Shown: positions 40,888 to 57,375, numbered from the stretch's first letter. The stretch: DNA of 64,000 nucleotides from Candidatus Heimdallarchaeota archaeon (GCA_019058275.1 JAHLVW010000025.1:1-64000); one strand, 5' to 3'. Translations and numbers: made by a program. The notes: generated by a model from the sequence alone, not told the origin.

Positions 40888-41022
40888 ATCTCATCATCGG
40901 CAACTAAAGAGAAAGATAATAACTCAAGTACTAAGGGGGCTGAGATGCATCTATTCACTTTCATGAGCAATGCTAACTCATAGAGTACAACCAGCTCAAA
41001 AAATTGGGACAGCTAGGAACAT
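40888..41022 (-). ncRNA. Putative structured ncRNA, copy A (unknown family)
   Basis: Homologous to 57245-57375 with compensatory changes in several helices; ends in a U-rich tract on the minus strand. Confidence 0.65.
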
Positions 41023-41066
41023 AACTAGAGAATAAGACAGTGAAAAAAACTGTTAGGAGATAAAAC

Positions 41067-41178
41067 TGGCGCCCCGATCGGGATTTGAACCCGAAACTGG
41101 TCAATGAGGTTTTTTTCTTCTCATTCATGTCCATCGGGTGACAGCCGAAGATGATAGGCCGTACTACACTATCAGGGC
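41067..41178 (-). tRNA. tRNA-Asp(GUC) with a 34-nt non-canonical intron (41095-41128, about position 48/49) and encoded CCA
   Basis: Acceptor GCCCUGA/UCGGGGC, anticodon loop CU-GUC-AC, T arm UCGGG-UUCAAAU-CCCGA; removing the insert gives a 78-nt cloverleaf. Confidence 0.92.
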
Positions 41179-41285
41179 ACATTAGTTTTTTTCTGTTATT
41201 TTTTCCTTTTTAATCTTTTCTAAGAATATGTGTTATTCAATTTTACGTCTACTACTTGTATTGATTTTAACTGTCTAACAGACAT

Positions 41286-41879
41286 TCATTTTATGTTATC
41301 TTTCAATAGTTTGATTGCTTCTTCTCTTGCTTTAAGTAATGTTCGTCTTTCAATTCCTTCCATTTCCTGAGATGATAGTATCTTTTCTGTTAACACCTTT
41401 GTAAATAGGAGGTATTCATCTTTTCTACTTATGTATGGAATGACTTTTTCTTCGTGAATAAATTCCTCGATAGAGGTTTTTTTTCCATTATTATTTCCTT
41501 CGGTCAGATCAAATCTGAATTTAGCATAGACTAAAAAACAATGAACCATTGGAACGTATGGTATATTATACTTTATCAAAATCTTATCTAGTCCTGTTGA
41601 AATAGCTTCTGTCAGTTTGTAAATTCCCACTTTTTTGTAAAGTGATATTTTGAGTTCTTCTGCAAGACCGGCAATAACTCCATGTTTGGTTGTACAGCTA
41701 CACATATTTTCTAAAAATAATATCATTTTATCATCTTTGTCGCTGTTATATCCATATTTTAGATTATGAACATATAGACATGCTTCTTGGAAAGTTTCTA
41801 TACATAGATCTAAGAATTTCTGACTTATCTCTCCAGATGATGTTATTTTCGCTTTAGGTAGATTTTCATAAGAATCCAT
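41286..41879 (-). CDS. Hypothetical protein with a possible transglutaminase-like Cys/His/Asp set
   Basis: SCTTKH...HCFL...DLT; the family is not firmly recognised. Confidence 0.6.
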   Translation of the reverse strand: MDSYENLPKAKITSSGEISQKFLDLCIETFQEACLYVHNLKYGYNSDKDDKMILFLENMCSCTTKHGVIAGLAEELKISLYKKVGIYKLTEAISTGLDKILIKYNIPYVPMVHCFLVYAKFRFDLTEGNNNGKKTSIEEFIHEEKVIPYISRKDEYLLFTKVLTEKILSSQEMEGIERRTLLKAREEAIKLLKDNIK

Positions 41880-42002
41880 AATTAAGCTAAAGCAGTTTTT
41901 TCATATAAGATTGCTGTTTTAGAAACTATTTTCTCGCCGAAATTAGCTCTATATTTCTTAGATGATTTTAGATTTAAAAGAGAAGATCAGTTATCTTATT
42001 TG

Positions 42003-42725
42003 TCAGATATTTAATTTCCGTTTTAGATCCACACCTCGAATAATCCTGAAGTGCAAATATAGCAGAAATCCACCTATTACTAATGTTGACGCTAATACGT
42101 ACAATGACCAACTGACAGTAAATCGTTGCTTTAAAAAGCTGGAAATGATGAAATCGACTCCTAGACAAATAACTCCAATGCCAAATAGTATGAATGATGC
42201 AATATTCAATCCCTTATTCTTAACAGAAATTGAAGTTATTACAACTGCAATAATTATCGTCTCTACTAACGCTACCATAGGCAATCCTACTCGTAAATAC
42301 CAATCGATTCGTCCGTTATCTATTAAATCTATAACCAAGAGGAAAACAAAAAGTGGGAGTGCTTCTCCTATTAGTAAAATCGTTAGTTTATCTGGGAATA
42401 GTAATGGCATTGAAATAATGAGCCAAACCAGTATTAGTGAAGCAATTGAGTAAAGTGACCAGCTTACAGTTTTATTAATAATTAAATCAGTAAACAAAGT
42501 GATTAGTAATGGAATTATTAGTGTAACGCTAGCAATTTCCCAAATTAGTTTGCGTCTTTGTTTTGCAGTTCTCCCTGGTTTACTTGGTCCTAGTGCAGGT
42601 TCGTCTGGGTACTTTTTTGTATATTCAACAGGTTCTTCATCAGTTTCTTGTATTGGTGATCCGCATAGAGGGCAATGTGTTTTATGTGGTTCAATTTCTA
42701 CTCCACATTTGCTGCAAAATGACAA
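42003..42725 (-). CDS. Zn-ribbon plus multi-pass membrane protein (DUF6320-like)
   Basis: CSKCGV...CPLC followed by about 6 TM helices with repeated SWSLY. Confidence 0.75.
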   Translation of the reverse strand: MSFCSKCGVEIEPHKTHCPLCGSPIQETDEEPVEYTKKYPDEPALGPSKPGRTAKQRRKLIWEIASVTLIIPLLITLFTDLIINKTVSWSLYSIASLILVWLIISMPLLFPDKLTILLIGEALPLFVFLLVIDLIDNGRIDWYLRVGLPMVALVETIIIAVVITSISVKNKGLNIASFILFGIGVICLGVDFIISSFLKQRFTVSWSLYVLASTLVIGGFLLYLHFRIIRGVDLKRKLNI

Positions 42726-42737
42726 TGCTATTATCTC

Positions 42738-55223: not shown

Positions 55224-55366
55224 TCCTACTTTTTTATTCCTTACTAGAATAATCTCAATAAGTTTAGAAAAATATCTCAATATGTTAAGAAAATAAACTA
55301 CTAACTTTTAGTAAAACTAAGAAAATAGGTAATACAGTAAATAATGAATAAATTTGTATCAAAAAT

Positions 55367-55807
55367 TTGGAGGACAAGAAAATGTTTGAAGACGAAGATA
55401 TGTGTGAAATTATCAATAATATGAAAGTTACAATAACCACTGCAAATGAAAGAGGTAGTGGAACTGATGATCCAATTAAATTATATATTGGAGAGCATAC
55501 TTGGGAACTCGATCATCCATTCTGCGACGATTTTGAGAAGGGTAAAACTGATGTTTTTGACTTAGATATTCCTGAAGGTTTAACCTCGGATTGGTTTCAA
55601 TATTTCTGCATTAAGAAAGAGCTTGATATACGAAGTGATAAATGGCAATTAAGACGAGTTATTGTGGAAATTAATGATAGAGTAATTTATGACTCTAGTG
55701 ATATAGAGTTTTGGTTCGAATCAAGCAAATCAACTTGGTGTGCAAAAGACTTCTTTTATGGTAAATGTCGTGGTAATGTAAGTCCTGATTTTGATGTTAA
55801 ACATTAA
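55367..55807 (+). CDS. Stand-alone PLAT/LH2-domain protein
   Basis: VTITT....SGTDD.I.L.IG, DFEKG.TD.F, W.L..V.V. Confidence 0.75.
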   Translation: MEDKKMFEDEDMCEIINNMKVTITTANERGSGTDDPIKLYIGEHTWELDHPFCDDFEKGKTDVFDLDIPEGLTSDWFQYFCIKKELDIRSDKWQLRRVIVEINDRVIYDSSDIEFWFESSKSTWCAKDFFYGKCRGNVSPDFDVKH

Positions 55808-55931
55808 TACTATTCCAACTCTTTTTCTTTTTTTTTTCTCTATATACATACTATACTGCTATTTTCAAACCATAGGAAGAATAAATATTCCATTTTCTAC
55901 TATACTATATATTAGAGAGTGGATGTAATAG

Positions 55932-55952
55932 TGGGAGAAAAGTTTATATAAG
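55932..55952 (+). promoter_or_regulatory. BRE/TATA promoter of tfb
   Basis: GGGAGAAAAG followed by TTTATATA (55943-55950), about 110 bp upstream of the CDS. Confidence 0.6.
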
Positions 55953-56057
55953 TAAAGTGACAAATATACCACCAAGGTAGTCCTATTCTCCTACCGAGAG
56001 AGAGAATGAACTACTCCCCTTTATAGTACTAGTAACAACAAAATTGGAGAAAGTAAA

Positions 56058-57047
56058 TTGTTAAATAAAGAAATAGTAAAGGAAGAGCAAGACGAATCAG
56101 AAGCTTCCTGTAAAATATGCGGTTCTGAAGCCCTCATAAATGATAATTCAAGAGGTGAAAGAATCTGCACAGACTGCGGTGCTGTTCAAGATATAATCTT
56201 AAGTTCAGGTCCAGAATGGAGAGCCTTTACTAAGAGCGAACAAGATGCTCGTGAAAGAGTAGGTGCTCCAACATCAAACTTGAAAATTGATAAGGGATTA
56301 AGAACTCAGATTGGGGCTGGTTATAAAGACATCTCTGGGAAGAATTTAAGCCCATCCACAATAGCCAGGATGAATAGGTTAAGATGGTTAAATAGAAGAA
56401 CAGGCAGATCTGAAGCTAGAAACTTAAGAGATGCTATCTTTGAACTTAAAAGAATTGCAAGTCAGCTAGGTATTTCTGAAGACATTACTGAATCTGCAGC
56501 AATTTATTATAGAAGAGCCTTAAAAGCAAAATTAATTCGTGGCAGAAGTATAGATTCAATGACTGCTTCTGCAATTTATATTGCTTGTAGAACTCATAAC
56601 GTTCCAAAAACACTCAAAGATATATGCACTACCGGGAAAGTTGATCGTAAAGAGCTTGCTCGATGTGTAAGGGTGTATATTGTTGAATTAGGCATTAAAC
56701 CAACACCAATAGATCCTGCTCAACTAGTTTCAAGATTAGGAACTGAGTTGAAGATAACAATGCATACCCAAAACAGAGCAATTGAGATCTTGCAAACAGT
56801 CAGATCTTACAAACTCGATGTTGGTAAGAATCCTATGTCAATTGCTGCTGCAGTTATCTATATCGCTGGTATACAAACTGGCGAGCGAAGAACTCAACAA
56901 CAAGTAGCTGAAGCTGCTAAGACCACTCCTGTAACTCTAAGAAACAGATTTAAAGAATTGGTTGCAGCTTTAGAAATTGGTCAAGTCACTGTAAAAAGAG
57001 GGGCTGCTGCGACACCAGTATATGTTAGAGATCCATACAAATTTTGA
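56058..57047 (+). CDS. tfb: Transcription initiation factor IIB
   Basis: CKIC/CTDC Zn ribbon, GPEWRAF B-reader, RGRS, two cyclin repeats. Confidence 0.95.
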   Translation: MLNKEIVKEEQDESEASCKICGSEALINDNSRGERICTDCGAVQDIILSSGPEWRAFTKSEQDARERVGAPTSNLKIDKGLRTQIGAGYKDISGKNLSPSTIARMNRLRWLNRRTGRSEARNLRDAIFELKRIASQLGISEDITESAAIYYRRALKAKLIRGRSIDSMTASAIYIACRTHNVPKTLKDICTTGKVDRKELARCVRVYIVELGIKPTPIDPAQLVSRLGTELKITMHTQNRAIEILQTVRSYKLDVGKNPMSIAAAVIYIAGIQTGERRTQQQVAEAAKTTPVTLRNRFKELVAALEIGQVTVKRGAAATPVYVRDPYKF

Positions 57048-57244
57048 TGGGTCTTGAAACCTTCTTTTTTTGTCATCTCAAAGACTGAAGTGGAGGTGAT
57101 TGATCAGCCTCCTCCATTTCATCCAATATATTTTTCTGCAATTTAGCTTCTTATTCATAATTAATAATGTTCAATCTAGCAATCAATGACTATTTAAGTG
57201 GAAAGCTAATACTGGATAATAACAAATTTTTAATAGAAAGAAAA

Positions 57245-57375
57245 ATCTCAACAACGACATGTGAAAGAGAAGAACTCGACACTGTTAAGGATGCTGAGAT
57301 GCACCATTCCTTGACCATGAGCAATGCTGACTTGAAGAGCTCAACCAACTCAATGAACAAGTAGGCTGGGAACAT
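57245..57375 (-). ncRNA. Putative structured ncRNA, copy B (unknown family)
   Basis: Homologous to 40888-41022 with covarying helices; ends in UUUUUCUUUC. Confidence 0.65.

Follow-up and report, generated by a model that had tools for sequence, protein, structure and literature searches.

We analyzed a 64,000-nucleotide stretch of DNA from a Candidatus Heimdallarchaeota archaeon (GCA_019058275.1, JAHLVW010000025.1:1-64000), called the window below, which is C11:1-64000 of its genome (G000; 4.12 Mb, 118 contigs). Our subject is a structured element that occurs twice in the window, as copies A and B (Table 1), and that elsewhere ends the second gene (gene 2) of ARAMP modules, CRISPR-like gene pairs without a CRISPR array. 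An earlier note, made from the sequence alone, had read the two copies as a stand-alone, minus-strand, intergenic noncoding RNA gene. The two segments are homologous, as it had said, and align at ~75 to 81% identity with 1-nt indels. They are also unmatched to described RNA families: a search of the whole window against Rfam 15 gave no match at the gathering score, and at E ≤ 1 the two regions returned only the neighboring tRNA and a chance mir-1175 match (18.9 bits versus a gathering score of 51). The remainder of the description, however, changed once homologues were compared.

Table 1. Positions of copies A and B and of adjacent features in the window
Feature	Position	Strand	Remarks
Structured element, copy A	40881..41027	+ (gene-sense; earlier note: minus)	Covariance-model match 120.7 bits, E 1.5e-25
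Structured element, copy B	57238..57380	+	Covariance-model match 154.6 bits, E 2.5e-33
Very probable ARAMP gene 2 (RAMP/HD-like) relic at A	40729..41004	+	~Residues 210-302; overlaps copy A
Very probable ARAMP gene 2 relic at B	57158..57370	+	~Residues 238-307; includes 65-codon open reading frame 57167-57364
Hairpin ACAGU/ACUGU, 7-nt loop A-rich on the plus strand	41037..41053	none	Between element and tRNA; from sequence
tRNA-Asp (GUC)	41070..41178	-	Convergent with copy A; starts 42 nt past relic stop-codon position; RF00005 37.7 bits (gathering 29)
Transcription factor B (TFB)	56058..57047	+	Upstream of copy B; Pfam TFIIB 4.1e-36, Zn_Ribbon_TF
Replication factor C small subunit (RFC-S)	57422..58405	+	Co-directional with copy B; Pfam Rep_fac_C 1.9e-25, AAA

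The 3′ end of ARAMP gene 2

The sequence that had been taken for intergenic and not codon-shaped corresponds, in reverse complement, to the 3′ end of a protein gene of which the genome has intact copies elsewhere. Homologues of A and B form the 3′ end of a gene of ~310 to 390 amino acids on the opposite strand; they carry a conserved open reading frame (ORF) and end the RAMP/HD-like gene of ARAMP modules. Translating every copy in six frames gave a conserved ...RIVESMxYGxxSLRNHLLLMVNLAINDYY..., a Lys-rich linker, and then IS.S...DAEMH..., again on the strand opposite that of the earlier note. At copy A, the relic gave a tblastn-type match (E 7.6e-12) containing one TAG and one TAA as in-frame stops, and it was supported by six-frame reading and by a profile match at 40750-41004. 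At copy B, the relic differs from its orthologue in a related genome (G002) by ~12 nonsynonymous and ~6 synonymous changes (alignment read by eye). Both relics retain just the last ~65 to 80 codons of gene 2 plus the downstream stretch. The block that the note had placed at the 5′ end, CUAUGUUCC, is the complement of GGAACAUAG, and the TAG within GGAACAUAG, at the end of the element, is the gene 2 stop codon in copies that keep the frame; on the note's strand, this stop codon falls inside the 5′ motif CUAUG. Copies A and B are thus very probably 5′-truncated relics of the 3′ end of ARAMP gene 2 that carry a structured nucleic acid element. Since the homologues contain a conserved ORF and the window copies are truncated relics of it, a stand-alone intergenic noncoding RNA gene is unsupported.

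Full genes with the same conserved tail were found on C89, C105, C88, and C86 and at C11:68-69 kb (six-frame reading and ORF maps); the modules on C89 and C88 span C89:99.4-101.4 kb and C88:1.3-3.9 kb. Gene 2 comprises 310 to 390 codons and is preceded by a gene of 250 to 290 codons, two paralogues of which match the Pfam family RAMPs (PF03787, 1.8e-7; 32.3 bits, cutoff 22.1) and which matches Csm3, a Cas7-type protein, in PADLOC at 1.2e-6. The N-terminal domain of gene 2 is β-rich in the AlphaFold model and has a weak PADLOC match to typeIV_Cas5 (6.7e-4, over 36 residues). Foldseek returned mostly RAMPs for gene 2, yet all at E ≥ 0.017, and against the PDB it returned nothing at E ≤ 0.001. 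A helical domain follows in which an HD...H...HH...D series is invariant in a 12-sequence alignment, and neither Pfam nor NCBIfam gave a match to this nuclease-like HD domain. Four of the six full modules in the genome are accompanied by a divergent gene of ~540 amino acids encoding a LAGLIDADG-HTH protein. The 12- to 19-kb stretches around four modules (1.3 to 12 kb on either side) contained no array-like direct repeats; Cas1 and Cas4 were not searched for. The element-bearing gene pair is assigned as an ARAMP module, in which the gene for a Cas7-like RAMP precedes the RAMP/HD-like gene and a CRISPR array is lacking. The primary description of ARAMP is reportedly that of Makarova et al. 2020 (CRISPR J 3:156). 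In reviews, ARAMP denotes array-less, type III-derived CRISPR-like systems of Asgard archaea, whose usual nucleases are HNH and PD-(D/E)xK and whose frequent partner is Cas1 (PMC8730458; PMC12669027). One full module lies at C11:66600-69340 (L091/L118), 2.6 to 5.3 kb past the window end and on the same contig and strand as A and B; its Cas7-like gene has an internal stop, its RAMP/HD-like gene of 390 amino acids has a Cys-rich insert (CPQC...CTTC), and the 5′ end of a tRNA lies 46 nt downstream.

Copies in the genome itself were found by blastn and then nhmmer, and those in relatives by protein search. The element is multicopy, as had been proposed, at ~130 to 145 nt, but the count of two rose to seven in the genome and to 41 in its taxonomic family (f1). 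The seven are A, B, C11:69147-69299 (5 kb past the window end and in the same orientation as A and B), and one each on C89, C105, C88, and C86; five full modules bear the element. The protein search recovered copies in 10 of the 12 f1 genomes. A covariance model built on the revised structure (R1; 143 positions, 24 pairs) recovered 41 copies at E < 1e-10 in 11 of the 12. A further match on C33 of the genome itself was judged spurious because its neighboring genes are unrelated. In the other genus of f1, a genome that is 75% complete (G011; L044/L084) gave two model matches, one of them strong: a stop-riddled relic upstream of an ABCE1-like gene, with an element scoring 128.9 bits. Intact gene 2 was not found in that 75% complete genome with the queries used.

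The structured element and its strand

The element is ~145 nt long and consists of two domains whose pairing is kept by compensatory change. Read in gene sense, a long hairpin comes first, closed by AUCUCA/UGAGAU and containing a covarying inner stem and a variable tip. It is followed by a domain in which the helix CUYN/NRAG encloses a small hairpin, GAGN/NCUC, with a 7-nt loop. The initial nucleotide alignment held 20 to 21 copies from related genomes. The long hairpin is the domain that the earlier note had listed second, and it was borne out: AUCUCA/UGAGAU is 94 to 97% paired, the inner stem is compensatory in five of five pairs, and the apical GAG/CUC covaries. In the other domain, the fourth pair of CUYN/NRAG occurs as G-C, A-U, and U-A and the third as C-G or U-A, and GAGN/NCUC becomes GAA/UUC or AAA/UUU in some copies. 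Three further helices proposed from copies A and B alone fared less well. The lower stem of the CUC-triloop hairpin is 84% paired, but its changes are one-sided (G-C/G-U) and it competes with two covarying helices, while the closing helix UGUUC/GAAUR (59% paired) and the re-pairing variable arms (65%) came near slid controls.

Covariation itself held on the larger sample. In the covariance-model alignment of 41 copies, 85.4% of cells were paired, compared to 38 to 47% in slid controls, and 19 of the 24 pairs showed compensatory change. Compensatory cells numbered 129, compared to 40.7 in shuffles, and none of 500 shuffles reached the observed value. An untuned MAFFT alignment gave similar separation (88.5% paired; controls, 30 to 43%). 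On the raw MAFFT alignment, RNAalifold recovered two helices only, because the variable stems were out of register.

Several observations indicate that the element is constrained as nucleic acid and not as protein. The AlphaFold model of gene 2 is confident for residues 1 to 300, whereas residues 301 to 338, which the element encodes, have a predicted local distance difference test score (pLDDT) of 24 to 32. In 8 of ~19 full copies, the ORF stays open across the element as far as the conserved TAG; in the others it stops or shifts before or inside the element, with the nucleotides still conserved. One base that is present or absent in helix CUYN/NRAG places the last ~10 codons in two frames. 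Covarying pairs alter the encoded residues, for example, A-S with T-A versus V-T with C-T, and relics without a start codon retain the element, among them the relic at the Rpo7 locus of G001 (both from alignments read by eye). Codon-position entropy showed no third-position excess of variation; this crude test is weak evidence, since columns are not frame-true across indels.

Elements of a comparable kind lie at the 3′ end of other gene 2 homologues. A second subfamily, the C25 type, has its own 3′ element, mostly inside the ORF (L063, L049, L055, L056, L064, L041). Its closing helix, GUUUCA/UGAAAC, differs from AUCUCA/UGAGAU by two compensatory changes, and its hairpins CUGUG/CACAG, CUGCG/CGCAG, and CCACC/GGUGG covary. 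In another taxonomic family (f6; G060-G077, loci L128-L143), RAMP/HD-like homologues end in ...NLIVQDF, and a different but analogous conserved element comes after the stop codon, with covarying long-range stems and a CCCC/GGGG hairpin. Many 5′-truncated gene fragments that retain this element were present in the f6 genomes.

The minus strand had been assigned on the grounds that G-U pairs there become A-C mismatches on the plus strand. On 41 copies with the structure fixed, the tally went the other way: the minus strand has 34 G.U and 73 A.C cells, and A.C cells on one strand are G.U on the other. RNAalifold energies were lower on the gene strand in both families for which they were computed (f1, 41 copies, −41.8 versus −33.7 on the other strand; f6, 16 copies, −11.4 versus −4.6). 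Counted on each strand's own consensus, G.U:A.C was 135:46 on the gene strand and 61:52 on the other strand in f1, and 38:14 versus 8:17 in f6. These statistics suggest that an RNA, if one is made, would probably come from the gene strand, the plus strand of the window. More generally, the case is a caution for annotation: what look like "intergenic covarying RNAs" in such genomes can be the ends of relic genes, taken on the wrong strand.

The same data bear on an antisense alternative, in which a minus-strand RNA of ~130 nt would target the 3′ end of the RAMP/HD mRNA and could, for instance, repress this nuclease gene or serve it as an antitoxin-like RNA, with the relics as orphan trans regulators. 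Such an RNA would start near CUAUG, perhaps from the back of the downstream A/T-rich promoter box ~25 nt away, and would end in the U-rich tract after UGAGAU. In keeping with this, most copies have an A/T-rich hairpin loop ~20 to 25 nt upstream of CUAUG, about half have T-runs of at least 5 after UGAGAU (by eye), the G.U-rich stem is 84% paired with G-C/G-U alternation, and pair 79:87 has 7 to 10 U.G cells. That stem, however, conflicts with two truly compensatory helices, and the T-rich tract, which in full genes is complementary to the coding sequence of the Lys-rich linker, is nothing out of the ordinary for an AT-rich genome. Single-sequence folding on the minus strand gave a mean z of −0.54 (copy A, +0.57), and both the alignment folding and the wobble ratios favor the gene strand in two families, as does the fixed-structure tally. 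We therefore regard an antisense RNA as decidedly unlikely.

Relics, neighbors, and spacing

Among the 37 copies with enough flank to be classified, 16 belong to a full gene, 14 are 5′ truncated, and 7 have no detectable coding remnant. Mean covariance-model scores were ~124 bits for full copies, ~120 for 5′-truncated copies, and ~104 for elements alone. In f1 and f6 alike, fragments that keep the 3′ end of the gene far exceed those that keep the 5′ end. The Rpo7, S19e, Snf7, and ABCE1-like loci carry full copies in some species and the corresponding relics in others. Conservation of these relics extends from 45 to 65 nt upstream of the long hairpin (in gene sense) to the start of the neighboring gene, and at Rpo7 and S19e it spans three to five species.

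Copy B has the top covariance-model score of all 41 copies. The RFC-S start codon lies 44 nt past the consensus stop position of the family (the TAG of GGAACAUAG), and the copy's own ORF stops ~15 nt earlier. At this TFB-RFC locus, the relic is also present in G002 and is partly deleted in G003, where its 3′ half is lost; the place is taken by a native, element-free spacer of ~250 nt in seven other genomes, including G005, whose RFC protein is 98% identical. We compared the tract L065:1195-1540 (window ~57116-57461) with its counterparts in G005 (L066) and G002 (L073). Between G000 and G002, copy B is 85 to 90% identical, compared to 42 to 62% for the adjoining native spacer and ~78% for the flanking TFB and RFC coding sequence. 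G000 diverges from the otherwise 95 to 100% identical G005 across copy B and its flanks (~100 nt on the left side and ~70 nt on the right), and the first ~30 nt of its RFC gene resemble those of G002 instead. From this pattern, the G000 allele of copy B looks like an import by recombination with co-converted flanks.

Copy A, in comparison, looks like a decaying relic. It is 67% identical to its nearest relative (L036), a full-length, stop-bearing module of G002 that abuts the same type of tRNA, tRNA-Asp, and it deviates at columns that are otherwise invariant. The tRNA-Asp next to copy A has a ~34-nt insertion after the anticodon arm, a noncanonical intron position; it was missed by ARAGORN and by the default Rfam filters and was found with permissive filters. 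Copy A and this tRNA are flanked by two ORFs with no Pfam match, 40310-40732 (+, 140 codons), whose 140-amino-acid product is small-membrane-protein-like, and 41286-41879 (−, 197 codons).

These two copies differ in how well they suit the view that A and B are plain pseudogene debris without function, the pairing signal belonging to the element of intact genes. The divergence of copy A, its loss of invariant columns, and its folding z of +0.57 agree with this view, as does the B-type relic of G003 without its 3′ half. On the other hand, copy B scores highest of the 41 copies and exceeds neighboring essential coding sequence in identity to G002, and the relics at Rpo7 and S19e are conserved in three to five species, from ~45 to 65 nt upstream of the long hairpin to the neighbor's start. 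Of the alternatives considered, debris is the one that fits copy A best, and it does not fit copy B; for the two copies together, we consider it quite improbable.

Spacing to the neighboring feature is narrow. In a dozen copies, the stop codon lies 41 to 46 nt from the next feature, either a co-directional start codon or a tRNA end. The neighbors were recognized by Pfam as RFC-S, Rpo7, and Snf7 (65 nt at Snf7) and by N-terminal sequence reading as ABCE1-like and S19e-like; three further neighbors were confirmed as ORFs and three are putative. This placement upstream of essential genes and tRNAs is an independent oddity that bears on how modules spread or persist. Between stop codon and neighbor lie a brief run of purines, a terminal hairpin with an A-rich loop and a stem that changes from copy to copy almost without exception, and the motif AGGNGAU. 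A hairpin of this kind (at least 5 bp) was found in 61% of copies, compared to 40% of the regions upstream of control genes, and it showed no preference for either strand. AGGNGAU, which also occurs beside tRNAs, was rejected as part of the element: it is mostly the neighboring gene's own ribosome-binding region, given the genome-wide G enrichment at −13 to −8 and the comparison with empty sites. Upstream of 1,613 long ORFs in the genome, that enrichment takes the form of GGAG or GGUG, pointing to common Shine-Dalgarno use, and no sharp TATA position relative to start codons was seen. The Rpo7 gene on C88 (from C88:3904 onward; L053:2513-3100, +; Rpb7-like SHS2 plus S1) has a conserved N terminus that starts at ATT, with no ATG, GTG, or TTG nearby, 40 nt past the module stop; four other genomes show the same arrangement.

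The placement could also be explained at the level of DNA. In that case, the element would mark the structured end of a formerly mobile module, for example, a site of recombination or homing read as folded single-stranded DNA, and would have landed just upstream of housekeeping core promoters. Relics would then persist since deletions reaching an essential promoter would be lethal, or since the end had been co-opted into the promoter or leader. Folded single-stranded DNA would yield an identical compensatory signal. The 41- to 46-nt distance recurs before co-directional genes at several independent loci (65 nt at Snf7), and tRNA ends lie at 42 to 46 nt; the native RFC promoter region is replaced in genomes with copy B, the G000 allele is import-like with co-converted flanks, a LAGLIDADG-HTH gene accompanies modules, 3′-retaining relics far outnumber 5′-retaining ones in two families, and the terminal hairpin favors neither strand decisively. 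Nevertheless, a blastn-short search of the last 320 nt against 9 kb upstream in five full modules found no inverted or direct terminal repeat, only chance-level matches of ≤15 nt, and comparison of the filled and empty RFC sites indicated a replacement with no target-site duplication seen. Module paralogues are 40 to 57% identical as proteins, which argues against recent transposition. A deletion shadow alone, moreover, would not keep pairing 100 to 190 nt from the neighbor's start or maintain 85 to 90% cross-species identity, and the wobble asymmetry suggests a single transcribed strand. On balance, we judge a purely DNA-level or position-driven origin to be unlikely.

Candidate roles and related systems

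The best overall explanation, to which we give about an even chance, is that the element is a gene-sense RNA forming the 3′ domain of the module and may serve the effector as its RNA partner. To our knowledge, Cas7- and Cas5-type RAMP proteins bind RNA and assemble on CRISPR RNA (crRNA) in every characterized class 1 system. Since ARAMP has neither an array nor Cas6, the element would be the likeliest candidate for such a partner. That it serves as the effector's RNA, as a scaffold and possibly a guide carrier, is a more tentative proposal, somewhat short of an even chance. The element might be produced as the 3′ domain of the module operon transcript or, alternatively, start at a promoter in the ~50 nt still present upstream of it in relics. 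Relics like copy B could survive because the RNA works in trans with the proteins of the five element-bearing full modules, or else by their position beside an essential gene. The guide, if present, may be the flank.

Several results weigh against a sense-strand RNA partner or soften the evidence for it. The strand call consists of wobble statistics on related, nonindependent sequences; a single column supplies 32 of the 73 A.C cells, and pair 79:87 favors the minus strand. The covariance-model alignment was fitted to the proposed structure and so leans toward it, and single-sequence folding is ordinary (mean z, −1.07 on the gene strand and −0.54 on the opposite strand). A 45-codon frame is open through the element in at least 8 copies, so that some protein-level role of the tail is possible. 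As modeled, the element is confined to f1, where 10 of the 11 other genomes have it; the 71 genomes of six other families of the class yielded one covariance-model match. With regard to function, no Cas6-like gene and no processing site were found, and no part of the element resembles the flank of its own copy more closely than it does other flanks, so that no internal spacer is evident.

A more specific mechanism would combine RNA and mobility. Here, transcription from the module's 3′ end would continue past the structured scaffold into the first bases of the neighboring conserved gene, and the Cas7-like/RAMP-HD complex would take this read-through as its guide for cutting alleles that lack the insert; repair would then carry into the cut alleles either the module or a relic that has no proteins of its own and depends on those supplied in trans. 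Such guide-by-flank homing would account for the fixed 41- to 46-nt spacing to co-directional housekeeping genes and tRNAs, for the excess of 3′-retaining relics in two families, for relics being conserved, and for the co-conversion of the flanks of copy B in this genome. We consider it clearly improbable.

A sense-strand RNA domain at the module's 3′ end would resemble parts of known systems. In its way of working, the nearest analogue would be the omega RNA of TnpB or IscB (OMEGA systems), which overlaps the 3′ end of tnpB. A possible likeness lies in a structured, RNA-like element overlapping the 3′ end of the effector ORF, here probably on the same strand as judged by wobble and alifold statistics, with an end close to unrelated flanking DNA, and in solo or truncated copies that persist without the protein gene. 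In contrast, these modules encode as effector a RAMP pair that includes an HD-like domain and not a RuvC nuclease inside an IS200/IS605- or IS607-type element, and no transposase and no left- and right-end pair were found. Membership in OMEGA is therefore excluded, because the effector is RAMP-type and no transposon ends were found within 9 kb.

The crRNA or CRISPR repeat of class 1 (type III/IV) systems is similar in that RAMPs of the Cas7/Cas5 kind normally bind it and in that a conserved, hairpin-containing part stands beside variable sequence. It differs in being a repeat of ~30 to 37 nt, compared to a single copy per module of ~145 nt and two domains, and the modules have no Cas6 and no spacer-like segment detected. 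A further parallel is CreTA. CreA, which is similar to a CRISPR repeat, directs Cascade to silence a toxin RNA, whereas the element here has no repeat likeness and no toxin accompanies it. CreTA-type small RNAs guarding cas genes (PMC8730458) would share with the element the tie of a small RNA to a CRISPR effector locus, which could make loss of the module costly and is relevant to the antisense alternative.

The closest comparison is with ARAMP itself. The modules agree with it in the Cas7-like RAMP with a second, putatively RAMP-type protein, the lack of a nearby CRISPR array, a putative associated nuclease domain, many loci per genome, and occurrence in archaea of the genome's own class. 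They differ in two respects: the place of the nuclease is taken by an HD-like helical domain, nuclease-like and joined to the second RAMP in one protein, and a divergent LAGLIDADG-HTH gene accompanies four of the six full modules of the genome. ARAMP and the haloarchaeal HRAMP are CRISPR-derived effectors without arrays for which reviews name no RNA, and no RNA component of ARAMP is described there (PMC8730458; PMC12669027). As far as the literature consulted goes, the ARAMP gene pair is known, and the structured 3′ element, its relics, and their placement appear undescribed. The ~145-nt element, with its strong compensatory pairing and its fixed place at the 3′ end of the second effector gene, is a concrete candidate for what RAMP proteins bind in systems without crRNA. 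An analogous element occurs in f6, and protein-less relics are conserved across species.

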